A stretch of 64,000 nt of DNA from Patescibacteria group bacterium (GTDB lineage Bacteria > Patescibacteriota > Minisyncoccia > Phycocordibacterales > JBBTRF01), in the NCBI GenBank assembly GCA_038065315.1, contig JBBTRF010000001.1, forward strand, positions 161,642 to 225,641. The letters are read 5' to 3'. Below the pieces are notes generated by a model that worked only from the letters and a program-made list of their open reading frames with translations, did no database searches and was not told where the DNA came from. The position numbers were made by a program, and so were the translations under genes. Position 1 is the stretch's first letter; each line of letters starts with the position of its first letter. Below, piece after piece: positions 5,604-53,002 of this stretch.

Positions 5604-8600
5604 CTAGAACTCGTTGAGGTCCGGATTGGTACGAACGGTCACGGTGATTTCAGATACCGATTTTGGAGAACCTGTGAGTACGTTGACTCCCTTGGTGAAG
5701 ATCTTGAGGGTGTACTTGTAGACGCCCTCGGTGTTGAGCGGACCGCGGATCAAAATAGTCGGTGGAACAATAGAGCTGTAGGTCTGCTGTGAGAGTGCGT
5801 TTCCGGAAACACCAGAGCCTGCTGGACCGCTCTGAGTGATGAAGTAGACATCGTCTGTGTTGCCACCGGAGATACCGTAACGCATCGCCACCGCTCGGCC
5901 TTTCTGTGTTGTGACGGAAGATTTATAGGCACTCGCATCCGAAGGCGCGGCCGAATTATTTGTCGCGATTGGTGCCGCGCCGAAATTCACATTTGAATCG
6001 GTGTTTTCCTGAGGCACGGCTGGACAGCTGATGAGTTGCGAGCTGTTCACTGCCAACGAAGCATCGGAAACTGAGACAGTGACGAACTGGCCAGGCTGTG
6101 CTGCTTGTGTCGGAGGGGTACCTGTCCAGGTATATGAATTGGTCGTCTGGGAGATAGGAGAATGGAGCTCGGAGTCGGTACCTGTAGATCGAATCCAATT
6201 AAACTTGTATGGTTGGTTGCCCTTAAACGTACCATCCAGAGTCGCTGTCCATGTCCAGTCGCTACCGGCACGTGTCGGTGCCGCGCAAGTCAGACCAAGA
6301 ATACTCGAGGTTTCGCAGACGCCAATACACGAGGCGCCACCGCCGATGACTATATTATTGGCACCACCGCTGCCGCCGATTGGCAAAATCGTGACCGTAG
6401 CACTTGCCGATGCGGTGCGCGATCCCGAAGTGACGGTGAGTGTGCCGGTCTTTGTTCCTGCCGTAGGATAACTAGTGCTGGTGTTGGTATCGGAGCCCGA
6501 GATACTGCCATCACCAGACCACGCATAGGTACATGGGGTGTATCTCGCATCGCTACAACCATCCACGACAGATGCCCATGAGATTGCTTCGTTAACATAT
6601 GCAGTTGCCGGGCTAGCTGTGACTGCAACAGCTAGGTCAGGTGGCAGTGGATCAGGTTCTGGAGCAACACTGATCTCTGGACAGATAACAACAAGTGTTC
6701 GGCCGCCGGAAGAAACCGACACGTCTCCGTATTTAATACCGGGAGTCGTATACTTGTTCGATGCTGTGGAAGCATTCCCCTTCGGACCTTCAACATCAGA
6801 ACCAGACCATGTGTAGGTATATGCTCCGTTACCTCCGGCGACATTGGTTGTACGCCAAGTAGCGATTGCGCCAACCATCGGCGAGGTCGGCGCGACGCAG
6901 GTCGCTACGATATTTGGCTGCGGTGTCGGATCTGAAGGAACGAGAATACCGAAGTGGATCCAGCCGAGTACTGTGGAACCCCAAGCGTAGCCAGTATAAT
7001 GACGACTACCGTCGAGCTCTGTAATGATCTGCGCTCCATATGGACCAGCCGCCGTAATGCCGCCCAGACTGATCCAGCCGCTAAAACCACCCTTTGGATC
7101 CGGGTTCGATGCAGTATAGGTCGCTCCGCCGGTGTCGGAGCAGGTACTTGGATTCTGTGCGCCAGAACAGACACGCGCCCAACCGGTCATGCGGCCACTG
7201 AGAGGGTCCACTTTCGCATTGGTCTGTGTGGTACCTGGCGCGACAGTCGAATTCGGCATTGACGCTGTGTTCAGCCCACCAAATTTGATCCAACCAACAT
7301 TCGATGCCCAGACATAGCCGGTGAGGTTCCCATAAATGTCGCGATTCACTCCGTAATCACCACTTGGTGCGGCTTCATTAGTGCTACTGAAGCTCAACCA
7401 GCCGATCGTCGAAGACCACGCCCAGCCAGAGAGTGAAGTCGGGTTAGCGAAGGTCGGAGTATTGGCATCAACGTTCGGATTTGGTGGTGTATTTGGGTTT
7501 GGGGTAGGATTTGGCGGCGGAATAACTGGGGCTGGCGGATTGACCGTGAGCAACACCTGGATCGCACCAAGTGCTCTGCCGTTGTCATACAGAGCAAAGG
7601 CGAGCGGTGTTCCAACACCGGTCACGGTCGGTGCTGAGGGTGTAGCGGTAATGACAAGAGAAACATTGCAGGTCGGATTCGGAGTACAGGATGTTGGAGA
7701 GAATGAGTAACTAATGCCAACCGGTAGCTGCATCCCGGGCGCAGCGGTGAAGGTCACCGGCACGCTCGGCGCACCCGAGTTGTTGGTGATAAAGATCTGA
7801 GTATTGACACTCTCCCCCTTCACCACGGAGACATTATAGGAGTCGGTTTTGGAGACATTGAATGTCGACGGCATCGAAACGGTAAACGTAACCGTTAGAT
7901 CGGAGAGATTGACGTTTCCGTTCGTGTCGCGACAGCGAATTGAGTACGAACGACTCGTGCCATCGACAAGGCCCGTGATGGTAGCAGAATGGGTCATTCC
8001 TGTGTCCCACGCTGTGAAGTTATTGTTCATCGCCGAATAAGTAGTGTCGACTCCTGCGGCATATCTACAAGTCGCCACATCATTGGTTGTAATGGAAAGA
8101 TTCGCATTGATGGTACCCGCAGGGAGCAATACAGGGGTCACGTTCGGAGTGACTAGGGTGCGAATTGGGGCACCGGAACATTTGTTTTGATGAGTAGTGG
8201 TTGCTGATAAAAATACATCCGCTGTATTCAAAAGGCAATCTACACTTTTCCCCAAAGTATCCATGTTTCCAGTGACAGATACCCCGGAATTTTTATATTC
8301 AGCACCAGAAGTCAAAATCACCTTTCGCATAGAAAAATAACGATAACTTTCTTGTAGTAGATTTGTTGATTGATTGAAACGACTATCAAAAATATTGTCA
8401 GAAATTTCTAGCCCCTCAACCTCTGTAATCAATAGTGCAGAATTTTGAAATTCCCCTATCGGACTTGAGATAAACCTAATATCATTATTGGCGACACGAA
8501 AATTCTTCAATTCTCGTGCATACGTACTTGGCGGGTAATACAAAGAATCGCTCGGATTAAACAGGTTACGGATAATTCGAATACCTGCTCGTGCACCTTC

Positions 8601-9923
8601 ATTCACAGGAACGAGAGTTATCTCATTATTGTGAATGTTATAGCCAATCTTTTTGAAATTTGGCAATCGATCTACAAAAATATCTATACCACGAGACACA
8701 CCTAAAAAGTGATTATTGTATATTTCGAGATTATAATCCTGCCACCAGTCAGAGTAATATCCCGCAGCAATATTTTCGCCAATATTATTAAACACTTTTC
8801 CACCATATGTGTGGTGTACCGAATATCCTTGGAAAGCGCTATCTTCGCCATTTACGCCAGTAAAGCGAATAGTGTTGTTCGCAATAACCGAGCGATTCAT
8901 AAAGACGTCCTTGCGCGACGTGTGCGCAGGATCATCGTTCGTACCATTAGAATTCCAAGAGCCGGTAATGTTAAAAACAGTTGACAGACCTTGCCTATTC
9001 CTCAATGAGGAATGTAGGTTGCTCTCCTCATAAACAGAGTTGACAATTCGAGAACAGTGAACGTCGGTCGTATCTCCAGTACAGGAGGCATTGTATCTCA
9101 CATTTGGATCAGCGACGCCATGTTCAGAAAGGAGCAGCAAGATTCCAAAAGATTCTGTCCCGCCGGTTCCATAATAATTGCCAATATTTTTTAATCTAAT
9201 ACCATCTGCAAAATTTCCTTCTCCGAACAACTGAACACCGTGTATCCTCGTCCTGTTTTCAGGCACAGCTTTATTGAACGGAGCCGAGTTAAACTTCTCA
9301 ACCAGAGTCGAGTAATTGGCATCGATGGTCAGATTCTTGATACCCTCCGCACTTGGAACCGCCCTCACGCCACCAACCCATTTGTATCCATCACCCACAA
9401 TCACCGAAATATCTGCCAATCTCATTTTGCTGCTTGCAGTAAATCTCGCGTCATCGAGCTTGATAATCGTCCCGTCCCGAGATTCTCCCACGATAGATGC
9501 GTTGCTTGGCAAAGTCCACTGAGGGAGGCAGCCGTTCGAAGTGCCACAGGTGTTGTTGGTAGAAAAACCAGCCGTAAGGTACGTGCCATTTTTCAAATGT
9601 ATTACCAATTTTGTATCTGACGGCTTGTCCTTAAGGGCATAATTTGCACTATTCACGCCCAATATGTTGGACATGACATAATCAATGCTTCCCATCGGCG
9701 CGCCGTATGGATTACCAACACTACCATCTCCACCAAAGACGGAAGGATCGGTAAAGGCGGCGCCCGCTACTTTTACATACACATCAACAAGAGTAGTGTT
9801 TGCAGGCGTTGGACTTTGCGCAAATAGAGACGACCCGAAAAAAATTACGCCAATAAAAAGAAAAATCCCACCAACGCCACAGAGTTTCCATAGTCGCATA
9901 CAGTGAATTATACAGCACAGCAA
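5604..9923 (-). CDS. Giant secreted/cell-surface protein (1439 aa): signal/TM anchor, right-handed parallel beta-helix region, Pro-rich linker, GW-type tandem repeats, Ig/PKD-like Ser/Thr-rich C-terminal region
   Basis: N-terminal hydrophobic segment LFIGVIFFGSSLFAQSP; many N-x-[ST]/NN..I repeats typical of pectate-lyase-like beta-helices (NNTIRF, NNDIRF, SDNIFD); PPAPVIPPPNPTPNPNTPPNPN linker encoded near 7470-7545; four GWI/LxF repeats; long T/S/G-rich C-terminus. Confidence 0.7.
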   Translation of the reverse strand: MLCCIIHCMRLWKLCGVGGIFLFIGVIFFGSSLFAQSPTPANTTLVDVYVKVAGAAFTDPSVFGGDGSVGNPYGAPMGSIDYVMSNILGVNSANYALKDKPSDTKLVIHLKNGTYLTAGFSTNNTCGTSNGCLPQWTLPSNASIVGESRDGTIIKLDDARFTASSKMRLADISVIVGDGYKWVGGVRAVPSAEGIKNLTIDANYSTLVEKFNSAPFNKAVPENRTRIHGVQLFGEGNFADGIRLKNIGNYYGTGGTESFGILLLLSEHGVADPNVRYNASCTGDTTDVHCSRIVNSVYEESNLHSSLRNRQGLSTVFNITGSWNSNGTNDDPAHTSRKDVFMNRSVIANNTIRFTGVNGEDSAFQGYSVHHTYGGKVFNNIGENIAAGYYSDWWQDYNLEIYNNHFLGVSRGIDIFVDRLPNFKKIGYNIHNNEITLVPVNEGARAGIRIIRNLFNPSDSLYYPPSTYARELKNFRVANNDIRFISSPIGEFQNSALLITEVEGLEISDNIFDSRFNQSTNLLQESYRYFSMRKVILTSGAEYKNSGVSVTGNMDTLGKSVDCLLNTADVFLSATTTHQNKCSGAPIRTLVTPNVTPVLLPAGTINANLSITTNDVATCRYAAGVDTTYSAMNNNFTAWDTGMTHSATITGLVDGTSRSYSIRCRDTNGNVNLSDLTVTFTVSMPSTFNVSKTDSYNVSVVKGESVNTQIFITNNSGAPSVPVTFTAAPGMQLPVGISYSFSPTSCTPNPTCNVSLVITATPSAPTVTGVGTPLAFALYDNGRALGAIQVLLTVNPPAPVIPPPNPTPNPNTPPNPNVDANTPTFANPTSLSGWAWSSTIGWLSFSSTNEAAPSGDYGVNRDIYGNLTGYVWASNVGWIKFGGLNTASMPNSTVAPGTTQTNAKVDPLSGRMTGWARVCSGAQNPSTCSDTGGATYTASNPDPKGGFSGWISLGGITAAGPYGAQIITELDGSRHYTGYAWGSTVLGWIHFGILVPSDPTPQPNIVATCVAPTSPMVGAIATWRTTNVAGGNGAYTYTWSGSDVEGPKGNASTASNKYTTPGIKYGDVSVSSGGRTLVVICPEISVAPEPDPLPPDLAVAVTASPATAYVNEAISWASVVDGCSDARYTPCTYAWSGDGSISGSDTNTSTSYPTAGTKTGTLTVTSGSRTASASATVTILPIGGSGGANNIVIGGGASCIGVCETSSILGLTCAAPTRAGSDWTWTATLDGTFKGNQPYKFNWIRSTGTDSELHSPISQTTNSYTWTGTPPTQAAQPGQFVTVSVSDASLAVNSSQLISCPAVPQENTDSNVNFGAAPIATNNSAAPSDASAYKSSVTTQKGRAVAMRYGISGGNTDDVYFITQSGPAGSGVSGNALSQQTYSSIVPPTILIRGPLNTEGVYKYTLKIFTKGVNVLTGSPKSVSEITVTVRTNPDLNEF

Positions 9924-19654: not shown

Positions 19655-20911
19655 CTACAGCTCTGGTTCTACGACGGTAATACGGGCGACGTCATCTGGG
19701 AACGTGCTCCGCCAGAATGGTCGAACTACCGCCTTCATCGGGGTGACTTCGCTGAAATTCGCCATGATTTCCTTGAACTGAGCCGTTTTCTGAGATACCA
19801 GAGCGGCTGAGATGTTAGCAGCATTATAGAGCCACACGAAGCTCGCCGTGCCAGAAACCGCCAATTTCACCGGGTCACGATCGAAGACCCCTATCGACAT
19901 GTTCTGCGGGACGATTTCAAGACCTTCAAGCGTCGATAGGTCAATTGGTTTTTCATCGTAGCCATTCAATTGCTTCGTCGCGACAGCCATGGCGAGCGCC
20001 TTTCGTTCCATCACCAGTCCAGTAAGCACTACCTTCTGCGTCAAAATAACAGTATCGGTATCTTTGTTCTGATTCGGCAGCTGCTCGACATTAAACAGTG
20101 TCGCTCGATCGAAGAAAGCATAGCCAGCGGGAGTCTGCGCTGCAGCAGATGTTAGGAGACGAGCCTTGAGGTCAGCAATCATCGAATCACGAGCCGCCTT
20201 TTCATCGGCAGGCTTCACCACCCGAACTACCCCCTTGCTACCTCCGGTCATAGCTGTTTTTGAACGCGCGTAGATATTTTTATACTTGGTCGGACTGGTT
20301 TTAAATCCTGGAATAGTAAAGTCTGTGAGGCCGATGTTGTAATCGGAACCTGCAGTGTCGGCATAGACCGTGACCTCAATACTTCCGGGCACTGTTCCCT
20401 TCTTTCCTGGAACAGTGACCGGCTCAGAGATTCGGTAGATCAATCCTTCTGGTGTTTGGAAACGGGTATTACGAATGAGGCGCTGGGTGGATGCACTGTC
20501 ATTATTGTAGATCACTATCTGACCCGATGCTTTTTTCTCCTCCATGCGCGTACCCTGTGCAAGCACTTCTTTTTGGAGTTGATCTGAGAGTGTGACAAGC
20601 TGATATTGCAGATCGGAACCCTTCACTGAAGCAGTCTTGCTGGCCAACAGCGTGGTATTTACCGCCACTTTCTGACTAAGTGGAAGGACGGTGATAGTGG
20701 CACCAATAAAAAACGTGGAGACAACATAGAAAAGCACGCCGATACAGACGACGACCAGTGCCCAAAGAATACTGCGACGGATTTTTGCATGCGAATCATG
20801 GCCAGTATCGTTTCCACCTCCGCGCGCAGACGGTGAGCGGAGTGAAGCAGGGATAATCCGAATACTTCGTCGTTCTGAAGGTCGCACATCATTGATAATA
20901 GGCCTCGACAT
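19655..20911 (-). CDS. Membrane-anchored hypothetical protein (Arg-rich cytoplasmic N-terminus, one TM, about 340-aa extracytoplasmic domain)
   Basis: ILWALVVVCIGVLFYVVSTFFIGA TM helix; no recognisable catalytic motif; start placed at the ATG at 20911 (MSRPIINDVRP). Confidence 0.45.
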   Translation of the reverse strand: MSRPIINDVRPSERRSIRIIPASLRSPSARGGGNDTGHDSHAKIRRSILWALVVVCIGVLFYVVSTFFIGATITVLPLSQKVAVNTTLLASKTASVKGSDLQYQLVTLSDQLQKEVLAQGTRMEEKKASGQIVIYNNDSASTQRLIRNTRFQTPEGLIYRISEPVTVPGKKGTVPGSIEVTVYADTAGSDYNIGLTDFTIPGFKTSPTKYKNIYARSKTAMTGGSKGVVRVVKPADEKAARDSMIADLKARLLTSAAAQTPAGYAFFDRATLFNVEQLPNQNKDTDTVILTQKVVLTGLVMERKALAMAVATKQLNGYDEKPIDLSTLEGLEIVPQNMSIGVFDRDPVKLAVSGTASFVWLYNAANISAALVSQKTAQFKEIMANFSEVTPMKAVVRPFWRSTFPDDVARITVVEPEL

Positions 20912-20987
20912 ATCGGTAGTATAGCAAATTTTCACGCGTTGTACCCGTGAAAAACTGTTGATAAAGGGTATTAAACCTCAGGTCACC

Positions 20988-22235
20988 TTATCCGATCTTT
21001 GAAATAAATAGTGCGCTAATGAGCAAGTTCACCGCGTGTACTTCTGGCGCATCCACTTCGTAGTGTTTCTTGAGAAAAGCCCGATCAAGAGAGATCACCG
21101 AGAATGGCGTACCGTCTGAGGCACCGTGACCGAGCGAATGATCAGAGACGAGTTCCGCAAAAAAGGATTGTAGTCGGTCTTCAGCGACAACAATCATCGT
21201 GCCTGGCACAAAACACTCTTCAGACAACAGGCCGATAGACTCCGAGACCGAGCTTTGCCACTCGCTCGAAGCTTTTTTAAGAAGCGGAGCGACTTTCGCC
21301 TTTGTTTCATCCGACAAAGCATCAAGGCCGTGTAGAGAAAGAACCGAAAGGGCCGTCTCTGGAGAAATACCCGCGCCTTTTTTCAGAGCACGGAGAAAAT
21401 GCTCCGCTCCCATCGGCACGGTGATCGTCTGCATCGCCACACCCTTCTTCACAATAGTAAAATCCGACACCTCACCATCAACATCCACCAACAAAAAATG
21501 CTGCGGGATGGATGGCACATTGCGCACCACTGAAACAGTGACGAGCGGAAACGTATGGAAATCAATCACTGCTCGGCGAAATACCCCCTGCACCTGTGCT
21601 CGCACTTGTTTCAATAGCTCACTACCAACAATACTGAAATACAGAGCAACGTCCATTTCTTTGTACTTCTTCCCTTTTGGCTGAGCGGTCTCGTAGCCGT
21701 TTAAGGAAATTCCGACAATATGCTTCTCGACAAGCTCAAGCTCCTCATGAAAGCGTTCACCGAATTCGCTCGTCGCAAAGGCGTCGCAGAACGTATGTGC
21801 TTCACGCAGCACCAATTCATCGAGCGACTTCTCCGAAAAAGGCTCCGGGGTATCTTTCACTTCACGGATGATCTTTGTCTGCGACAGAAACCATGGCGAG
21901 GCGAAGGTGCAGTGGACCGAGAGCACGGCATCTGCTCTCAATGAGCCTATCTTTGTAAAAGTGAGGTGAGGGAGGCCTTCTTTTTCGATCCGCTCTATCA
22001 CCTTTTTCAACACCAGTACGATTGCCTCATTCATATCCTCATTCGGACGATGTAAGGGAAAAGTCTCGTCGCAAGAAAAGAGGATCTTTGGAGCATGACA
22101 CAGACCCGACGGTGAATGCATGTCGCCGCAATCTCGCAGTGCCAATGCACCGGAGACTCTCTCGCCCTCGATATGGATCAGGACGACCGGTTCTTTTTCC
22201 TTCCTCGAATGCGTACCAAAAGACAGCAGACTCAT
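20988..22235 (-). CDS. Hypothetical protein, 415 aa (possible actin-like ATPase fold such as PilM/FtsA-like; weak)
   Basis: Protein-like composition; N-terminal VVLIHIEGERVSGALA loosely resembles the phosphate-1 loop of actin-like ATPases. No firm motif. Confidence 0.4.
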   Translation of the reverse strand: MSLLSFGTHSRKEKEPVVLIHIEGERVSGALALRDCGDMHSPSGLCHAPKILFSCDETFPLHRPNEDMNEAIVLVLKKVIERIEKEGLPHLTFTKIGSLRADAVLSVHCTFASPWFLSQTKIIREVKDTPEPFSEKSLDELVLREAHTFCDAFATSEFGERFHEELELVEKHIVGISLNGYETAQPKGKKYKEMDVALYFSIVGSELLKQVRAQVQGVFRRAVIDFHTFPLVTVSVVRNVPSIPQHFLLVDVDGEVSDFTIVKKGVAMQTITVPMGAEHFLRALKKGAGISPETALSVLSLHGLDALSDETKAKVAPLLKKASSEWQSSVSESIGLLSEECFVPGTMIVVAEDRLQSFFAELVSDHSLGHGASDGTPFSVISLDRAFLKKHYEVDAPEVHAVNLLISALFISKIG

Positions 22236-26994: not shown

Positions 26995-27858
26995 CTAGCA
27001 CACGCTCGCCAACTCCTCTTTCACTTCGGCGATTTTGCTGGACGAGAGGCCTATCGAGGTCAGTACAGACGGATCGGCATTGAGTGCCTTGCACAGTACG
27101 ATGCCTCGACGAAAGAGTTCCTGTCGGTGACTGTCGCTGAGCGTGCTGATGCAGGTGAGCGGATGCAGGCCAGACTCCTCGATCCACTGTTCGAGGTTTT
27201 CTTTTTCTGGATAGTTCCAGCCGATCATTTTTAGGCCGGCACATTTGCCATAATCGATAGCGGTCTGAGTAAATTTTGTATTCGTCACCAGCCAGCCCTC
27301 GCCAAATGGACGCTTCTTGCCGCCGTAATCAAAACTCTGCGAGCGTAGGTCATCAAATCGTGCCTTCACATAAAGGGCAACCTTCAGGTCGGTCTTAAAT
27401 CCGAGCTCGTTGTGGAATTTCAATTCGCACATGATGAGGTCTGGGCCAGCGAGGACAGCCGTCTCGGTCGCGCCGTCTTTGTACGCCACCACGTCCACTT
27501 CATGCGGTACACAGGCACCCCGCACTGTCTGGTCGGTGAGGGCAGTGTAGCCTTTTGCACGGAATACTTCGGCGATAAATTTCTCGAAGGGAAAGCCGGT
27601 GGGGCCGAGGCCGGCGAGGGCGCGGCGAAGAGAATACTTCGCCGCTACCGGCTTCTGGTGCTGCCGCAACAGATTGAATGCGTGATGATAGATATCGTTC
27701 GTCGTCACTCCTTCCACCAATTCACCTTGAATGTGCGCAACAATCTTCTCGATGACGGCATCGTCTGCTCCAACACGCTTCAACGAATAAACAAGCTTCT
27801 CCGGACGGAAAGCTTGTTTACTACCATCAGCCTTTAAAATATGTACTGAGGAATTCAT
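26995..27858 (-). CDS. ATP-cone domain fused to a PD-(D/E)xK (Mrr/restriction-endonuclease-like) nuclease domain
   Basis: N-terminal VHILKADGSKQAFRPEKLVYSL (ATP-cone, as in NrdR/RNR); C-terminal HEVDVVAY ... IMCELKFH gives a D...E-x-K nuclease signature as in Mrr_cat. Confidence 0.55.
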   Translation of the reverse strand: MNSSVHILKADGSKQAFRPEKLVYSLKRVGADDAVIEKIVAHIQGELVEGVTTNDIYHHAFNLLRQHQKPVAAKYSLRRALAGLGPTGFPFEKFIAEVFRAKGYTALTDQTVRGACVPHEVDVVAYKDGATETAVLAGPDLIMCELKFHNELGFKTDLKVALYVKARFDDLRSQSFDYGGKKRPFGEGWLVTNTKFTQTAIDYGKCAGLKMIGWNYPEKENLEQWIEESGLHPLTCISTLSDSHRQELFRRGIVLCKALNADPSVLTSIGLSSSKIAEVKEELASVC

Positions 27859-27870
27859 TCCTGCTCCCTA

Positions 27871-28344
27871 CTAGCCCTTGATATTGACGTTAAAACTGTC
27901 GAGATCTTGATTGTCTGGCACTTCAAACAAATTCAAACGGAGCTTCTTGCCATTGAGAGTCGCTGAGAGGAGAATATCCTTCACTGCCTCGAAAGATAGC
28001 TTGAAGGGCTTTGAGGTGATGACCTGGGCACACATCTCAGAGGTTGAAGTCGAGGTAAACACGAGAGTGTATCCAGTGGTGTTGTTGGCGTCTTTGTTGT
28101 ATGCACTTGCGAGAGAGTGACATGGGGTCGGTAGGTCGATCTCACCTACATAGATGTGTCGGCCATCCTTGTACTGATGCTTCACATTCACCATCTGAAC
28201 ATATTCATCCTGAGCAACCGGTGTCTGTGTGGTATCACCCACATCAGGAGTACTTGGCGTCGAGAGCCAATAGATGCCGAGTGCCAACAAAACAATGACG
28301 ACTACGCCGATAACCCAGCTCTTCATGTTGCTATTTGATTCCAT
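27871..28344 (-). CDS. Secreted/signal-anchored hypothetical protein
   Basis: N-terminal TM/signal WVIGVVVIVLLALGIYWL; 157 aa. Confidence 0.45.
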   Translation of the reverse strand: MESNSNMKSWVIGVVVIVLLALGIYWLSTPSTPDVGDTTQTPVAQDEYVQMVNVKHQYKDGRHIYVGEIDLPTPCHSLASAYNKDANNTTGYTLVFTSTSTSEMCAQVITSKPFKLSFEAVKDILLSATLNGKKLRLNLFEVPDNQDLDSFNVNIKG

Positions 28345-30546: not shown

Positions 30547-31842
30547 TTAGATCGGCAAATTGCTTGGGGCCTCTGATCGGCGTGACTCGATACGATCCAG
30601 AGAAGGCGTAGTCGCAGTCGCACCAGGAAGATGGAAAATGGTCGCCAAAGATTCGGTGGTCATGACAAACGACTTAGACTTCCAATGCTTGTAGGGATAG
30701 GTAAAGAACGAGCGGTGTTTGAAAGCATCCAAAAATGCCTTTTCATAATACGTACGGCGCATACGCCCAAAATCTTGCCACGGATAGTCGAAATCGGTAA
30801 AGAAGCCGAGCCCGAGATTGTTCAAATAGTTGTAATTGCCACCATACTGTCGGAAGGCGCCGATCAAGCCAGGCACGCGCACCGGCAGTTTGTTGGCTGC
30901 CTTTGTTGCAATATACATACCGCGAATAGCGGTATCGAACGGAAGCTTGTGCGCATTACGCTCAATGGCGGCGATCGCTTCAGCCTGACCCTTGGTAAGA
31001 TTTGGGAAACCGGGATATTCAGAGTCAGTCTCCGGCGTGGCTGCCTTTTTGATATTTGCAATCTCCGTCTCACACGACTTGAGCCAATCGTCCACCTTCT
31101 TCAAATGTCCTTCTTGCAATCCAAGCTTTTTGTGCGCCTGGATGAGGATCTGGAACCAGGCCTGCTCTCCAGTTTGCAACGAACCCATCCATTCGAGCAT
31201 CGAGTTTATTGGATCGATCTTGAATTCTTCCTTTTCCGAAGCCTTGTCCAAGCCAAAATCCACATAACTCTTGATCTGATACATATCCTGCGAACCGGGA
31301 GTCTTGCCCTTCTTCGAATGTTTAAAATACGTGCCCCACATCGGCATTTCTTCCGGATGAGTGAAGACCTGGTCGGTGTAGTCCGGTACCTCTTCAATCA
31401 CGATGCCGGGATAATACGCATAGAGCTGTGCCTCAATGAGATCCTTGTATTTAGTATGCGTCCAAATATAGAAATGTACCTTGCCACCGATCGAGGCGAT
31501 CTCCAGAGAGAACCAGTTGCGGATCTTGCCATTGATGTACGTATCGATCCAGCTCGCCGAACCTTTCTGCCAGATAGAAGCGAGAAAAATTTCCATTGCC
31601 AATGGCGACTTGGTAACCTCCTTCGGCAGTCGTATCTCGAGGAGCGTGCCACCCTGTTTCTCCACAAACTCACTGCGCACATAATGAAACCAGGTATAAA
31701 AGAAAATGTATCCGCAGAAAAAGGGTAGCCAGATCGGATACATCGACAAGAACGTCGAGATGCTTTGGTATAACAAACCACTAAAATCAGCGCCGAGAGC
31801 TGGGTCCATGAAGGTAATAATAACAAAAAAGTGCTGTCCCAC
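30547..31842 (-). CDS. Hypothetical membrane protein (two N-terminal TM helices plus about 350-aa soluble domain)
   Basis: 431-aa ORF with protein-like composition. The 365-aa plus-strand ORF 30631..31728 opposite it is R/L-rich and is taken as its antisense shadow. Confidence 0.5.
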   Translation of the reverse strand: MGQHFFVIITFMDPALGADFSGLLYQSISTFLSMYPIWLPFFCGYIFFYTWFHYVRSEFVEKQGGTLLEIRLPKEVTKSPLAMEIFLASIWQKGSASWIDTYINGKIRNWFSLEIASIGGKVHFYIWTHTKYKDLIEAQLYAYYPGIVIEEVPDYTDQVFTHPEEMPMWGTYFKHSKKGKTPGSQDMYQIKSYVDFGLDKASEKEEFKIDPINSMLEWMGSLQTGEQAWFQILIQAHKKLGLQEGHLKKVDDWLKSCETEIANIKKAATPETDSEYPGFPNLTKGQAEAIAAIERNAHKLPFDTAIRGMYIATKAANKLPVRVPGLIGAFRQYGGNYNYLNNLGLGFFTDFDYPWQDFGRMRRTYYEKAFLDAFKHRSFFTYPYKHWKSKSFVMTTESLATIFHLPGATATTPSLDRIESRRSEAPSNLPI

Positions 31843-33090: not shown

Positions 33091-36000
33091 CTACTCTTCC
33101 GCGACTACGACATTCACCAACTTCCCTTTCACCACGATCACCTTCACAATCTTTTTGCCCTCAATCCACCTCTTCACTTCCGGCAAGGCGAGTGCGGTCT
33201 TCTCGAGATCTGCATCAGAAGCCCCTGCCGGTGCGGCAAATTCTGCGCGAATCTTGCCGTTCACCTGCACGCCAATCTTGCGGCCAGCCTCTTGGATTTT
33301 TGCCTCATCACAGACCGGCCACGACGCGAGATGGATGCTGGTCTTATTGCCGAGCTTCGTCCACAGCTCTTCGGTCATGTGCGGTGCAAATGGCGCGAGC
33401 AGTTTTAGCAATGTCTCGTATTGCTCACGAGAAACACTCGCCTGCTCATCCATCGCGTTGAGCAACACCATCAAGGTACTCACCGCGGTGTTGAATTTCA
33501 TCTCCGAAATATCGGAAGTCACCTTTTTCACGCTTTTATGCATCAAAGATTCGATCTCGACTGACACATTCGCATCGCCACCAATAGCCGGCGCATTTTG
33601 TACCTTCCCTGCGAGCTTCCAGATGCGTTCCAGGAAGCGACGCGAGCCGATCATGCTGTTGGTATTCCAAGCGATCTGCTGGTCGAATGGTCCCATGAAC
33701 ATTTCGTACACACGCAGAGTGTCCGCGCCATAGGTAGCGATAATCTCATCAGGGTTCACGACATTACCCCAGCGCTTCGACATCTTGCGTCCATCTTCGG
33801 CCATGATGAGGCCGACGTGCTGCAGCTTTTTGAACGGCTCGGTGGTCGAGACCACCCCAATGTCATACAGAAACTTGTGCCAGAAGCGCGCGTAGATAAG
33901 GTGGCGCGTTGCATGCTCGGCCCCGCCGACATACAGGTCTACAGGCGCCCAATATTGCTCCTTGCGCGGATCCACGAGCGCTTTTTTGTTCTGCGCATCC
34001 ATGTATCGCAAGTAATACCAACTCGAACCTGCCCATTGAGGCATGGTGTTGGTTTCGCGCTTGGCCTTACCACGACACTTCGGACACTTCGTGTTTACCC
34101 ACTTCTCAATCGCCGCCAAAGGCGACTCACCAGTGCCAGTCGGCTCGTATGACTTCACTTTTGGAAGCTTCACAGGCAGTTCCTTTTCAGGTACAGGCAC
34201 GACTCCACACTTCTCACAATGCACCACAGGGATCGGCTCTCCCCAATATCGCTGACGTGAGAACACCCAGTCGCGGAGACGGAAGGTCGTCTTCTTCTTG
34301 GCGAGATTTTTTGACTCAAGATGAGCAATGATTTCCTTTCGGACACTTCGCGCATTCTCGTCGGCGAATTCCTTTGGCTCAGTCAACACACCAGCCTGAG
34401 CATCAGCAAAGCACACCTCCTGCGCTCGCACTTTCTCAGCCAGAGCAGCATCTTTTGGATACAAAACGGTCTTCAGTTTGATGCCGTACTTTTTTGCAAA
34501 AACAAAGTCGCGGTCGTCATGAGCCGAACACTTCACGATACCAGTTCCGTAGTCGGCCAAAGCAAAGCTCGCCACCCAGATAGGTAGGTCACCGTTGCCG
34601 AGTGGGTCGACAATATATCGGCCCGTGAAAATTCCCTCGGATTCCTTCTCTTCAGCAAATCCCTGCTGAGCACGTTTTGCGACGAGTGCTGCGCAAAAAT
34701 CCAAAACTTTCTGCTTGTCTTTTGTTCCTTCAAGCAACGTCTGCAAGAATGGATGATCTGGCGCAATAACAACAAATGTATCGGCGTAGCAGGCTTCAAA
34801 GTGAGCTGAGAAGGTCTGGATAGTGAGATTCGTATCTTTGACCGGTGCAGTGAAAATCATGCCGTCGCTCTTTCCAATCCAATTTCGTTGGAGCTCTTTG
34901 ATAGAAGTCGGCCAATCGAGTGCGGGCTTTGCGATATTTTTTTCTTTGCCAGTGAATACATCCCACAAATAATTCATGTCTGGACGATTCAAAAAGCCGG
35001 CGACTTCCGCGCACGACAACCACACCACTTCATGCAAAGCTTTTTCTTGCTCGTCGATTTCTTTCCAGGCATCATCGGTGAGCTCGAGGTATACGCCGGT
35101 GAAATGCGCGAAGCGATTCACCTTTTTGATCGCTTGATAAAACTGCGAGTCGAGCTTGGCGAATTCGCGAACAAAGCGAACATTCTGATATCCGGTCTCT
35201 TCTTGTACTTCGCGCACCGCTGCTTCGGCGAGCTGTTCGTTCTTCTCGACACCACCCACCACGAGGCCGTGCCAGTCATTGCTCTTCCAACGGAGACAGA
35301 GAAACTTATCTTCGGACCAATGCTTCACCACACAAACTACAGCATCGCGCTCTTCGAGTGGCATATCCGCACGCACCGCATCGGGACCCGTATCGCGGAT
35401 CATGAGCGGCACCGCGCGCTCTGTCGCATCCAAATCCGCGAGCAATCGCTCCGCGTAATCCGTGATCTTCAACACCCACTGACGAATCGGCTTTTTCTCG
35501 ACGACACTGCCGCAGCGCTCGCACTTGCCGTCCTCGAGATCTTCGTTGGCCAAGCCGGTCTTGCAGGATGGACACCAGTTGATCGGCTCATGCGACTGAT
35601 ACGCGAGACCCTTCTCAAGTAATTTCAAAAAGATCCACTGTGTCCATTTGTAGTAGGCAGGGTCGGTGGTGTTGATCTCGCGGGACCAATCGTAGTCGAA
35701 GCCAAACATCTCGAGCTGCTCTTTGTAGCGCTGCACATTTTTCTCCACGGCGATAGCCGGGTTCGTCTTCATTTTGATCGCGTAGTTCTCCGCGGGCAAT
35801 CCAAAAGCATCGAAACCCATCGGATGCAACACCGAATGACCTTGCATACGCTTCATACGCGACACGACGTCGGTAGCGATGTAGCCCTTTGGATGACCCA
35901 CATGGAGACCTTCGCCCGACGGATACGGGAACATATCGAGGGCGTAGAATTTCTTCGCAGCGGCGGTACCGTTCGCAACCACGCCTTTCTTGGCTTGCGA

Positions 36001-36099
36001 CTCCTTGGTCGCGTAGATTTTTTTCTTCGCCCACTGCTTCTGCCACTTCGGCTCGATGGCGAGATGGTCGTACGGCGGCAGCAATTTCTGCGGTTTCAT
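33091..36099 (-). CDS. leuS: Leucine--tRNA ligase with an inserted NUDIX-hydrolase domain (residues about 225-394)
   Basis: HVGHP HIGH motif, KMSKRWGN KMSKS motif, and an editing domain present. A segment with a textbook Nudix box (GGVEKNEQLAEAAVREVQEETG) is inserted between ITDYAERLLADLD and WPTSIKELQRNWIG; total 1002 aa versus about 830-860 for typical bacterial LeuRS. Confidence 0.9.
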   Translation of the reverse strand: MKPQKLLPPYDHLAIEPKWQKQWAKKKIYATKESQAKKGVVANGTAAAKKFYALDMFPYPSGEGLHVGHPKGYIATDVVSRMKRMQGHSVLHPMGFDAFGLPAENYAIKMKTNPAIAVEKNVQRYKEQLEMFGFDYDWSREINTTDPAYYKWTQWIFLKLLEKGLAYQSHEPINWCPSCKTGLANEDLEDGKCERCGSVVEKKPIRQWVLKITDYAERLLADLDATERAVPLMIRDTGPDAVRADMPLEERDAVVCVVKHWSEDKFLCLRWKSNDWHGLVVGGVEKNEQLAEAAVREVQEETGYQNVRFVREFAKLDSQFYQAIKKVNRFAHFTGVYLELTDDAWKEIDEQEKALHEVVWLSCAEVAGFLNRPDMNYLWDVFTGKEKNIAKPALDWPTSIKELQRNWIGKSDGMIFTAPVKDTNLTIQTFSAHFEACYADTFVVIAPDHPFLQTLLEGTKDKQKVLDFCAALVAKRAQQGFAEEKESEGIFTGRYIVDPLGNGDLPIWVASFALADYGTGIVKCSAHDDRDFVFAKKYGIKLKTVLYPKDAALAEKVRAQEVCFADAQAGVLTEPKEFADENARSVRKEIIAHLESKNLAKKKTTFRLRDWVFSRQRYWGEPIPVVHCEKCGVVPVPEKELPVKLPKVKSYEPTGTGESPLAAIEKWVNTKCPKCRGKAKRETNTMPQWAGSSWYYLRYMDAQNKKALVDPRKEQYWAPVDLYVGGAEHATRHLIYARFWHKFLYDIGVVSTTEPFKKLQHVGLIMAEDGRKMSKRWGNVVNPDEIIATYGADTLRVYEMFMGPFDQQIAWNTNSMIGSRRFLERIWKLAGKVQNAPAIGGDANVSVEIESLMHKSVKKVTSDISEMKFNTAVSTLMVLLNAMDEQASVSREQYETLLKLLAPFAPHMTEELWTKLGNKTSIHLASWPVCDEAKIQEAGRKIGVQVNGKIRAEFAAPAGASDADLEKTALALPEVKRWIEGKKIVKVIVVKGKLVNVVVAEE
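34920..35427 (-). other. NUDIX domain insertion within leuS (approximate coding coordinates)
   Basis: Nudix box G-x5-E-x7-REVQEETG, plus flanking beta-strand-like segments; flanked on both sides by conserved LeuRS sequence. Confidence 0.6.
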
Positions 36100-51288: not shown

Positions 51289-51807
51289 TTAAAAATTGCC
51301 TTCCATTATCTTTATTATTCTTTTTAGTATTGGCATGTTTGGAATGACAGCATCAAGAACACTCCTTGAAAAAAGTCTCTTACAGTCCCCATCAGTTAGA
51401 CTCCTTCTTCCGTTCAGGTGGTTACTCTGAAAGGACCGTTTACAGTCTGATGAAGATCGGTTTGCGTGATTTGTGGCTGGTTCGAGAACGGTCAAAAGCA
51501 GTCCTTCAATACAAGGACTGCTTCCAACCAATTCAAAACCCTTAACTTTTGCTTTATTTTTTACAGGACTTGTCCATTCACGATCTGTATCTAGCAATAT
51601 GAAAGAGTGGTTATATTTCAGATTACCTTTTACACGTAGCGCTTTTTCCAGAATGTATGACACATCTTTTCCTCCAGCATAATCTACTCTTACGCTGGTT
51701 TTGTTTACCGCATACAGCGATCGAATGTGCTTTAGGAAGATTCTTTCAGCTTCTCCCTCTCCAAAAGCAAACACTGTGGTTTTCTGTGCCCTAAGAGTTC
51801 TTGCCAT
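51289..51807 (-). CDS. DUF4276/RloB-like (TOPRIM-like) small protein; putative nuclease partner of the upstream ATPase
   Basis: TVFAFGEGEAERIFLKHIRSLY matches the family's h-h-h-EG-x-x-E-x-x-F N-terminal motif; ILLDTD matches the TOPRIM DxD. Start set at MARTLRAQK (51807), 4 nt after the ATPase stop; the ORF track's longer start would overlap by 70 nt. Confidence 0.5.
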   Translation of the reverse strand: MARTLRAQKTTVFAFGEGEAERIFLKHIRSLYAVNKTSVRVDYAGGKDVSYILEKALRVKGNLKYNHSFILLDTDREWTSPVKNKAKVKGFELVGSSPCIEGLLLTVLEPATNHANRSSSDCKRSFQSNHLNGRRSLTDGDCKRLFSRSVLDAVIPNMPILKRIIKIMEGNF

Positions 51808-51811
51808 AATT

Positions 51812-53002
51812 TTAAACCTTAGGAATAGCCCCGTAAGCCCCAGCCATATACTTAGCGTAGAAGTTGTCGTCTGCTCTGACACCTTTTACATCAGCCAAGT
51901 TCCAAGCCTCACTGATACCCTTATCATTCTTTTCGACCAAAATGATCTGCTGTTTATCTAATTTGTTTAGTATCTGCACACTGTGAGTGCTGAACAAAAG
52001 CTGTGCTTTATTTGGATTGTAGGTCTCTGAAGAGAACAAATTGATGATTTCTGGAATCATTAGTGGGTGAAGATCATTATCCATTTCATCTAGGACGGCA
52101 ACTCCACCACTTTGCAATACAACCAAGATGGTTCTAAGCAAGAAGAGAAGGTTCTGAGTTCCCCTAGATTCATACTGGAAAGAGAGAGAGTACTCCTTAC
52201 TTCCATCGATGTACTTGTGAGATCCTGTTGGAACATAGATAACCCTTTTGTCTGATGTCTCGACCTTCTGAATATTTATTTTTGCTAAACCTAGATCAAA
52301 CTTGCTTAGTATTTCTTCTGCTTTTGCTTTAATTTCGGGATTTTCCTGATAGTATTTTATTGCATCGGCGAGGCGTTCCATTGGGACTTTACCGCCCTCA
52401 AAAATGTTTGTCTGTATAGCACTGAGGTAGTTGGTAATTTCAATACTGTGCTTATGATTTATCTGGCGTGCTGTAGAAATAATTGAAGCGTTACTACGAG
52501 TAATTTGGGCAAAGTTTGCTGGAACATCAAACCTTTTAAAGTTGAAGTCGTATTCATTCTTTTCCTTATTCCATGACCTATCGAAGAGAATCTTGAACCT
52601 CTTTTCCTCTTTGATACTTAACTTCTCATTGATAATTTTCTTGGTGTTTAATTCAAGTTCGTATTTATATATCTTTTTGTTTGTTTCAAACTCAATATCA
52701 AAGAAGCTTGATCTTTTATCTGAGTCAGCACAGAACAAGAAGGGTTTGAATGCGATGTCTTTATCGGGGGTAAGAGCAGAGAATGAATCTACCACAAACC
52801 ACTTCATAAAAGCCAAACTTTTTAGAAGATTAGTTTTACCCGAAGCATTTGGTCCAACAAATGCCATAAATTTAGTGAGCTTATTCCCAAACTCATCAGT
52901 AAAATATGCATCCGTGTCAGGTGCATTTTTGTTGACCACCAGATCAATCTCGGCACCCTCCATAAAGGAGTAGAAGTTTTTGAATGATAGTTTGTGGATC
53001 AT
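51812..53002 (-). CDS. AAA/ABC-type ATPase of the AAA_15/AAA_21 (OLD/AbiLi/AriA-like) family
   Basis: Walker A GPNASGKTN near the N-terminus; split Walker B VAVLDEMD plus downstream LFSTHS (D-loop/H-loop) near the C-terminus; ABC-signature-like ESRGTQNLL; about 250-aa insertion between the Walker motifs. Confidence 0.65.
   Translation of the reverse strand: MIHKLSFKNFYSFMEGAEIDLVVNKNAPDTDAYFTDEFGNKLTKFMAFVGPNASGKTNLLKSLAFMKWFVVDSFSALTPDKDIAFKPFLFCADSDKRSSFFDIEFETNKKIYKYELELNTKKIINEKLSIKEEKRFKILFDRSWNKEKNEYDFNFKRFDVPANFAQITRSNASIISTARQINHKHSIEITNYLSAIQTNIFEGGKVPMERLADAIKYYQENPEIKAKAEEILSKFDLGLAKINIQKVETSDKRVIYVPTGSHKYIDGSKEYSLSFQYESRGTQNLLFLLRTILVVLQSGGVAVLDEMDNDLHPLMIPEIINLFSSETYNPNKAQLLFSTHSVQILNKLDKQQIILVEKNDKGISEAWNLADVKGVRADDNFYAKYMAGAYGAIPKV

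Follow-up and report, generated by a model that had tools for sequence, protein, structure and literature searches.

What does an ATP-cone do when it is joined to a nuclease? ATP-cones have been studied almost solely in ribonucleotide reductases (RNRs) and in NrdR, where they set the supply of deoxynucleoside triphosphates (dNTPs). The question is raised by a gene on the minus strand of a stretch of 64,000 nucleotides (nt) from a Patescibacteria group bacterium (GenBank assembly GCA_038065315.1, contig JBBTRF010000001.1, positions 161,642 to 225,641), which as a whole is called the window here. The first-pass annotation of this DNA had described the gene product as an ATP-cone fused to an Mrr-like PD-(D/E)xK nuclease and had proposed that it might work as a nucleotide-pool-sensing defence or toxin element. 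Our analysis points to a different role. Taken as a complete package, the reading that we favour, at somewhat less than an even chance, is a nuclease that is gated by an adenine nucleotide and supplies the recycling of nucleic acids and nucleotides. The window copy itself is an ordinary, syntenic member of a large family.

The protein almost certainly has a three-domain architecture. Both families expected from the first reading of the sequence were found above their Pfam cut-offs: the ATP-cone (PF03477) matches amino acids (aa) 6–80 with 32.7 bits (cut-off 25.8), and Mrr_cat (PF04471) matches aa 88–132 with 22.9 bits, just above the threshold of 21, the match being confined to the first 42 of 115 profile positions. 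The Mrr-like label applies to this first part of the profile; the Mrr_N domain is missing (no Pfam match; the N-terminus is the ATP-cone), and the protein is therefore not orthologous to Mrr but belongs to the AF1548 family. Similarly, the fusion of cone and nuclease is real, while a third, C-terminal AF1548-like_C domain (aa ~213–287) had been overlooked. The Pfam family of this domain, PF22357, matches aa 245–286 with 18.1 bits (18–21 for this protein), below the cut-off of 23.9; it matches 21 of the 22 family members tested (best E=7.4e-26), and a profile of the domain matches residues 121–196 of the AF1548 structure 1Y88 with E=7.6e-22. No NCBIfam model matches the protein.

An AlphaFold model based on 23 homologues (mean predicted local distance difference test score, pLDDT, 86.4; predicted TM-score 0.80) consists of a hairpin and four-helix cone (strands 6–8 and 14–16, then four helices), an alpha/beta nuclease core and a helical C-terminal domain. 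The core has the order alpha-beta-beta-beta-alpha-beta, with helix 91–101, strands 105–113, 118–126 and 141–147, helix 157–171 and strand 187–192. The top Foldseek match of the model is 1Y88 (E=8.6e-13, target-normalised TM-score 0.77), followed by the ATP-cones of NrdR and RNRs (probability 1.00); the cones of Escherichia coli NrdR superimpose with a root-mean-square deviation of 1.8 Å over 81 residues. Weaker matches include the sensor-nucleases Cdn1, Can2, VC1899 and MspJI. The C-terminal domain is weakly similar to the N-terminal helix-hairpin-helix (HhH) domain of Rad51 (E=0.29) and to HHH_5, which suggests that it is probably an HhH-type nucleic-acid-binding module. The features of the gene, an open reading frame (ORF) of 287 codons and a stop, are as follows.

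26995..27858, minus strand: complete gene, 287 aa plus stop, ATG start (ORF, Pfam, 1Y88 match, AlphaFold, full-length relatives)
27859..27873, minus strand: junction with the upstream ORF, with TAG at 27871–27873 and GGGAG at 27864–27868, then the ATG (sequence)
27607..27858, minus strand: ATP-cone, aa 1–84, beta-hairpin lid and four helices (PF03477, Foldseek, NrdR residue alignment)
27583..27606, minus strand: linker G85-P-x-G-F-P-F-E92, near-invariant (conservation counts)
27223..27582, minus strand: PD-(D/E)xK nuclease core, aa 93–212 (Mrr_cat, 1Y88 alignment and conservation; codons verified in the sequence)
27442..27477, minus strand: lineage-specific loop insertion of 12 residues, aa 128–139, GATETAVLAGPD (family alignment, pLDDT)
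26998..27222, minus strand: AF1548-like_C domain, aa 213–287, all-helical (PF22357, domain profile versus 1Y88)

The loop insertion lies between the strands that carry D122 and E145, is found in the closest relatives only, and contains the residues with pLDDT below 50 (aa 131–136).

A phmmer search of the PDB sequences found one strong relative, 1Y88, that is AF1548 of Archaeoglobus fulgidus (E=8.4e-29, aa 94–283). The function of AF1548 has been described as no more than a "predicted restriction endonuclease" (PMC1821046). Since the deposited chain starts after the FE helix, it lacks the sensor and one catalytic residue, and 1Y88, the sole solved structure, should not be read as the complete protein. 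The 265-aa protein P0284, which is 99% identical to the 1Y88 sequence, carries an ATP-cone and a GFGFE helix upstream of the start of the 1Y88 match, and the window protein aligns with it from end to end (36% identity over 283 aa, E=1e-59). Full-length Archaeoglobus AF1548 has its bacterial orthologue in the window protein. The full-length form shares its three domains and the D/E-x-K residues; AF1548 as crystallised and annotated has no ATP-cone, unlike the window protein, which in turn has Ala in place of the Arg of the cone motif KRDG and the 12-residue loop insertion.

The family comprises 5663 word-indexed relatives, with 421 clusters at 50% identity and E<=1e-30. Nearly all of them are full-length proteins of ~280 aa, and the cone is present in essentially all members. 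At least 596 GTDB species genomes contain a relative, all of them metagenome-assembled genomes of Patescibacteria/Paceibacteria type. Archaeal relatives found with AF1548 as the query have 260–280 aa and the domains PF03477, PF04471 and PF22357; they occur in Archaeoglobi, in Nano-, Aenigm-, Kor- and Bathyarchaeia and in Altiarchaeales. Full-length members were also found in Dependentiae, Chlamydiota and many Bacteroidota (7522 matches), including plasmid-borne ones in Criblamydia and Pontibacter. Database names of these proteins are "ATP cone domain-containing protein", "restriction endonuclease", "ATPase" and "Holliday junction resolvase-like". As an object the gene is not new: Pfam and NCBI already list its architecture, and a structure of the nuclease half is available. 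Literature searches for ATP-cone together with restriction endonuclease, nuclease, Mrr or Candidate Phyla Radiation (CPR) found no paper on this architecture and no characterised nuclease regulated by an ATP-cone. In mechanism such a nuclease would be a new variation on two known themes, ATP-cone allostery and sensor-nuclease fusions.

To describe residue conservation, we aligned 265 full-length relatives with 35–92% identity. The peptides from which the first-pass annotation had read a catalytic triad, HEVDVVAY (aa 119–126) and MCELKFH (aa 143–149), contain D122, E145 and K147, each conserved in 265/265 sequences and encoded by nt 27493–27495, 27424–27426 and 27418–27420, respectively. On alignment they are in register with D38, E51 and K53 of AF1548, predicted to be catalytic by Yooseph et al. 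(PMC1821046), and the model has the core fold, so that this part of the earlier description is borne out. The core motifs are H119-E120-x-D122, E145-x-K147, R167, D170 and T192-N193-T194, with E120 and N193 each present in 264/265 sequences and R167 and D170 in all. The fourth catalytic residue, E92 (263/265), ends the linker, where G85 (264/265), P86 (260/265), G88 (263/265) and F91 (265/265) are almost as constant. The sequence pattern predicts a metal-dependent PD-(D/E)xK nuclease with the active site E92/D122/E145/K147.

Two cysteines of the nuclease core, Cys116 (nt 27511–27513), three residues before the H119-E120-x-D122 motif, and Cys206 (nt 27241–27243), are each conserved in 259/265 sequences. 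They are lost jointly in the same six sequences (Y/G, H/G, S/D twice, N/Y and F/G) and so appear to be coupled, whether as a disulfide or redox switch or as ligands of one metal site.

The assignment of the N-terminus, including the peptide HILKADGSKQAFRPEKLVYSLKRVG (aa 6–30), to an ATP-cone as in NrdR and RNRs is upheld by the Pfam score, by the cone fold found with Foldseek and by conserved contact residues. The inner-site nucleotide contacts of E. coli NrdR are listed in its structure paper (bioRxiv 10.1101/2025.03.28.645925). An alignment of the family profile to E. coli NrdR gave the following equivalences, with counts among the 265 relatives.

I7 of the family: V51 of NrdR
K9: K53 (263/265)
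A/S10: S54
E15: E59 (207/265)
F17: F61 (255/265)
K21: K65 (257/265)
L22: L66 (210/265)
T53: S105 (252/265)
I56: I108 (222/265)

The Arg of the KRDG motif is replaced by Ala or Ser in 210/265 sequences, with Ala in the window protein, and KRDG is retained in archaeal orthologues. Ser occupies this position in E. coli NrdR (KSND; Ser54), which binds ATP (bioRxiv 10.1101/2025.03.28.645925). From these residues, the cone very likely binds an adenine nucleotide (ATP or dATP, possibly ADP or AMP). The conservation of the adenine-nucleotide contacts makes allosteric gating plausible, and on balance we lean towards a nuclease that is gated by the nucleotide in its cone. The linker GPxGFPFE leads from the last cone helix directly into the first nuclease helix, which bears the catalytic Glu92, and is a plausible route for allosteric coupling of the cone to the active site.

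The substrate and the physiological role suggested here come from gene neighbourhoods in Bacteroidota, Chlamydiota and one Bathyarchaeon. For the Bacteroidota-type clade, a metagenome scan yielded 80 loci, which were analysed together with five plasmid or genome loci; the gene was present in 84 of these 85. In the Criblamydia and Pontibacter plasmids it heads a cassette, followed in order by a metallo-beta-lactamase (MBL)-fold hydrolase, a thymidine-phosphorylase (TP)-family protein and a ribose-phosphate pyrophosphokinase (phosphoribosyl pyrophosphate, PRPP, synthetase). A beta-CASP/RMMBL nuclease lies immediately 3' of the gene in 33/79 loci, and 30 of these have a gap of -19 to +18 nt. In Bacteroidota and Chlamydiota the gene is translationally coupled to this RNase-like partner and to genes for an AMP-phosphorylase-like enzyme, PRPP synthetase and PPK2. 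Forty seven loci had at least 5 kb of downstream sequence; beta-CASP was found in 32 of them, an archaeal-type phosphorylase in 22, PRPP synthetase in 18 and PPK2 in 13. The phosphorylase is of the archaeal nucleoside monophosphate (NMP)/thymidine phosphorylase type (TIGR02645, ~600 bits; AMP_phos, ~500 bits, just below the cut-off). In the Bathyarchaeon, ribose-1,5-bisphosphate isomerase (TIGR00511, 419 bits, cut-off 314) comes first, then a bona fide AMP phosphorylase (TIGR03327, 617 bits, cut-off 535), with whose 3' end the gene overlaps. Microoxia raises both transcript and protein levels of the MBL/PRPP-synthetase/TP-family trio in Bradyrhizobium (PMC6515984). The low-oxygen lxa locus of Burkholderia was considered as a further instance of the trio, but the link was not used, as these genes go unmentioned in the main text of PMC3721108.

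Several other neighbours recur. Universal stress protein (Usp), AA_permease and heavy-metal efflux modules flank the Bacteroidota-type cassettes. The amino-acid permease and Usp adjoin the gene in both Archaea and Bacteria, fused in Archaeoglobi (L081, L087) and as separate genes in Bacteroidota (L123, L127, L129 and others). Cation-transport genes are also repeatedly found: a P2-type cation ATPase (L094, L096, L111, L116, L119 and others) lies immediately 3' of the gene in 22 of the 79 Bacteroidota-type loci and overlaps it in all 22, by 14 nt in 19 of them; CorA (L083) and MgtC occur elsewhere, the latter directly 3' of the gene in five Paceibacteria loci and in six loci overall. In Dependentiae (L176, JAFEAY010000021.1) the gene is flanked by a PilB/T2SSE ATPase, 18 nt away, and by a secretin, and so, judged by these neighbours, apparently inside a type IV pilus/DNA-uptake-like operon.

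In the clade of the window the context is different. We called, clustered and annotated ORFs in 80 species-level Paceibacteria loci and in the window. The order on one strand is leuS, a Sigma70_r4/HARE-HTH protein, a 420-aa membrane protein, mltG, mnmA, the gene, a variable slot and alaS, followed by two proteins of no known family and infA. The slot contains a family-4 uracil-DNA glycosylase (UDG; 47 loci), pepF (21), a Cas4-like PDDEXK_1 protein (16), an M3/M2-like peptidase (14), a YfbR-like HD 5'-deoxynucleotidase (12, in nine of the 80 directly 3' of the gene), PCMT (7) or MgtC. In 40/63 loci fewer than 50 nt separate mnmA from the gene. Pairwise distances of the gene and mnmA are correlated in a mirror-tree analysis (Pearson r=0.67, 0/999 permutations), and the mean divergence is similar, 0.47 for the gene and 0.44 for mnmA. 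Such a pattern marks the gene as a core gene with vertical inheritance. A location in defence islands was not borne out: the neighbourhood is housekeeping synteny throughout the 80 genomes, and within the clade the homologs largely are conserved housekeeping proteins.

The neighbourhoods in Bacteroidota, Chlamydiota and the Bathyarchaeon tie the family to the conversion of nucleic acid to NMPs and to further NMP metabolism. Counted with these links are the YfbR-like 5'-deoxynucleotidase next to the gene in nine Paceibacteria loci, the Dependentiae locus and the two relatives that carry a PemK/MazF RNase domain. We propose a cytoplasmic three-domain enzyme whose N-terminal cone would bind an adenine nucleotide and whose HhH-like C-terminal domain would hold nucleic acid. 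By analogy with RNR and NrdR, occupancy of the cone could alter the oligomeric state, the geometry of the active site or both. The cones of the RNR proteins NrdA, NrdD and NrdB are N-terminal allosteric domains as well, and nucleotide-dependent oligomerisation is the action to be expected by analogy; they differ in being fused to an RNR catalytic subunit rather than a nuclease, and in RNRs the effector logic is ATP on, dATP off. The adenylate or dATP status of the cell would then switch cleavage on or off, and a controlled housekeeping breakdown of RNA and/or DNA would supply nucleotide salvage or catabolism. A role in recycling, which we hold only tentatively, fits lineages living on scavenged nucleotides; many of these organisms lack de novo nucleotide synthesis and rely on nucleic acid that they scavenge (PMC5113843, PMC6389311). 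A more specific version, which is doubtful, casts the protein as the adenylate-gated enzyme that is missing at the start of nucleic-acid catabolism: at low energy or dNTP levels it would open RNA or DNA for its beta-CASP exonuclease partner. The resulting NMPs would pass to AMP-phosphorylase-type enzymes and the pentose-bisphosphate/RuBisCO route in Archaea, CPR and DPANN, and to the microoxia-type MBL/TP/PRPP-synthetase/PPK2 cassette in Bacteroidota and Chlamydiota.

A number of observations weigh against recycling as the role. AMP phosphorylase, e2b2, beta-CASP, PRPP synthetase and PPK2 genes are not in the 64-kb window, nor are the cassette genes within 6 kb on either side of the gene in the 80 Paceibacteria loci, so that the functional link is transferred from relatives at 39–42% identity. 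The UDG and Cas4-like PD-(D/E)xK neighbours in Paceibacteria suit DNA repair equally well, and salvage nucleases are not usually cytoplasmic enzymes with a restriction fold and an HhH domain. Archaeal contexts, as far as sampled, are of housekeeping type and differ from one another (transporters, Usp, CorA, aminoacyl-tRNA synthetases and one restriction-modification system): in Geoglobus the gene follows an AA_permease-Usp gene, with Hjc and TiaS nearby; in Ferroglobus CorA overlaps the start of the gene; DPANN-type loci have DJ-1, Glu_synthase-like, thioredoxin reductase and alaS genes near it; and one archaeal locus adjoins a restriction-modification pair. As to the cone, the position of the outer-site Tyr131 of NrdR, which discriminates ATP from dATP, is Arg or Lys in the family, and the nucleotide preference therefore cannot be read from the cone residues.

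Some of these points lead to a rival that we consider rather unlikely, a nuclease of DNA repair or recombination (a Holliday-junction or flap resolvase-like enzyme, or one acting after base excision) that ATP or dATP would license, so that DNA would be broken only if repair synthesis can follow. The combination of a PD-(D/E)xK fold with an HhH-like DNA-binding domain agrees with this idea, as do the JGI/COG label "Holliday junction resolvase-like endonuclease" given to relatives, the matches of some members to the Pfam family Hjc, the frequency of UDG (47/80) and the Cas4-like gene (16/80) just downstream on the same strand in Paceibacteria, and the presence of uvrA and uvrC in the window. The downstream slot, however, is occupied by many different genes, and the sole constant neighbour in Paceibacteria is mnmA upstream; moreover, Geoglobus has a separate Hjc two genes off, the loci examined have no recurrent RecA, Ruv or ligase partner, and the coupled partners in Bacteroidota are an RNA-type beta-CASP protein and enzymes of nucleotide metabolism, not repair genes. 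A constitutive nuclease, in which the cone would be a structural or oligomerisation domain with no nucleotide sensing, is improbable. The frequent loss of the KRDG Arg and the lack of conservation of the outer-site Tyr speak for it, but E. coli NrdR binds ATP with Ser in place of this Arg, archaeal orthologues keep KRDG, and K9, E15, F17, K21, T53 and I56 are 78–99% conserved.

The defence or toxin element of the first-pass annotation, an anti-phage nuclease unleashed by a change in dNTPs or ATP at infection, we regard as very improbable. Sensors joined to PD-(D/E)xK effectors are common in defence, and there are weak Foldseek matches to Cdn1, Can2 and MspJI, a weak PADLOC match (PDC-S02, E=5.8e-4), two relatives fused to PemK/MazF, plasmid-borne copies and the one archaeal locus beside a restriction-modification pair. 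The PDC-S02 match, however, is limited to 60 residues of the generic Mrr motif, and the plasmid copies are in metabolic or metal-stress operons rather than in defence islands. The signature of vertical inheritance (housekeeping synteny and co-divergence with mnmA over 63–80 genomes, at an evolutionary rate resembling that of a tRNA-modification enzyme) argues against this reading. No relatives were found in IMG/VR (pattern scan), INPHARED (tblastn) or PHROGs, a fold search of BFVD gave single-domain matches only (viral RNR cones and generic restriction enzymes), and no methylase, antitoxin or other immunity-type neighbour recurs. Can2, Card1, Cdn1 and VC1899 follow the same principle of a small-molecule sensor on a PD-(D/E)xK nuclease (structural matches at E~1e-3), but the sensor of the family is an ATP-cone with no CARF or SAVED match in Pfam and no CRISPR or CBASS context, and whole-chain TM-scores are ~0.3. 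Mrr and other type IV restriction enzymes (PF04471) have the PD-(D/E)xK core and the motif order FE...D...ExK in common with the family; they differ by their Mrr_N winged helix. The context of the family is one of housekeeping, and nothing indicates modification-dependent restriction. Finally, a nucleotide-responsive DNA-binding regulator resembling NrdR, in which the nuclease fold and the HhH domain would serve for DNA binding alone and which would stand in for NrdR in Archaea and CPR, is most improbable. NrdR, the repressor of nrd genes, has the same cone fold and inner-site contacts, its cones are structurally the closest, and both proteins fuse a nucleotide sensor to a nucleic-acid-binding module, the C-terminal domain of the family resembling DNA-binding HhH modules; to our knowledge, Archaea lack NrdR. 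The family, unlike NrdR, has no Zn-ribbon, the protein starting directly with the cone, no outer-site Tyr and no nrd linkage, with no ribonucleotide reductase gene among the recurrent neighbours in ~260 loci. Its output domain is a nuclease with four catalytic residues that are 99–100% conserved over 265 sequences, a degree of conservation that is not expected of a pure binding domain.

If the nucleotide-gated nuclease acts in recycling as we propose, it would be the first nuclease under ATP-cone control and the salvage-side counterpart of RNR feedback. The family occurs in thousands of genomes of CPR, DPANN and other Archaea, Dependentiae, Chlamydiota and Bacteroidota. Gating of nucleic-acid breakdown by the cone would explain how scavenging cells adjust salvage to what they need, and a further class of enzymes would come under ATP-cone allostery.

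Within the window, the genes alaS, pepF, the nuclease gene, a further ORF, mnmA and mltG lie tightly packed on one strand. The nuclease gene had been described as sitting alone between pepF and mnmA, but a 157-aa ORF (27871–28344, minus strand) with an N-terminal hydrophobic helix and no Pfam match separates it from mnmA. This ORF is lineage-specific, since it was found in just one further locus (L002). Its stop codon is 12 nt and a GGGAG Shine-Dalgarno sequence 5 nt before the ATG of the nuclease gene, a layout that is consistent with co-transcription and translational coupling of the two. Promoter and terminator scans around the gene found nothing beyond chance, and its GC content shows no anomaly.

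Two of the Parcubacteria relatives (P0030 and P0046, ~445 aa) carry the PemK/MazF-type RNase domain (PF02452) N-terminal to the ATP-cone nuclease.

Some other genes of the window may be mentioned. Three proteins of ~415–430 aa (19655–22235 and 30547–31842, minus strand) are syntenic in Paceibacteria, where two of them (clusters 7 and 8) follow alaS and one (cluster 2) precedes mltG; they have no sequence match in Pfam or the PDB, and PDB searches with two conserved neighbours of no assigned family gave no match. A protein of 1439 aa (5604–9923, minus strand), whose sole match is a sub-threshold PKD domain, is probably a large surface protein. An AAA_21/AAA_15 ATPase of 396 aa, of OLD/AbiEii-like families, and an overlapping 197-aa ORF (51289–53002, minus strand) possibly form a small defence-type pair, unrelated to the ATP-cone nuclease gene. 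The leucyl-tRNA synthetase of the window (33091–36099, minus strand; 1002 aa) has a NUDIX domain (PF00293, aa 254–366, E=3.6e-12) inserted before the editing domain, which is unusual for this enzyme.

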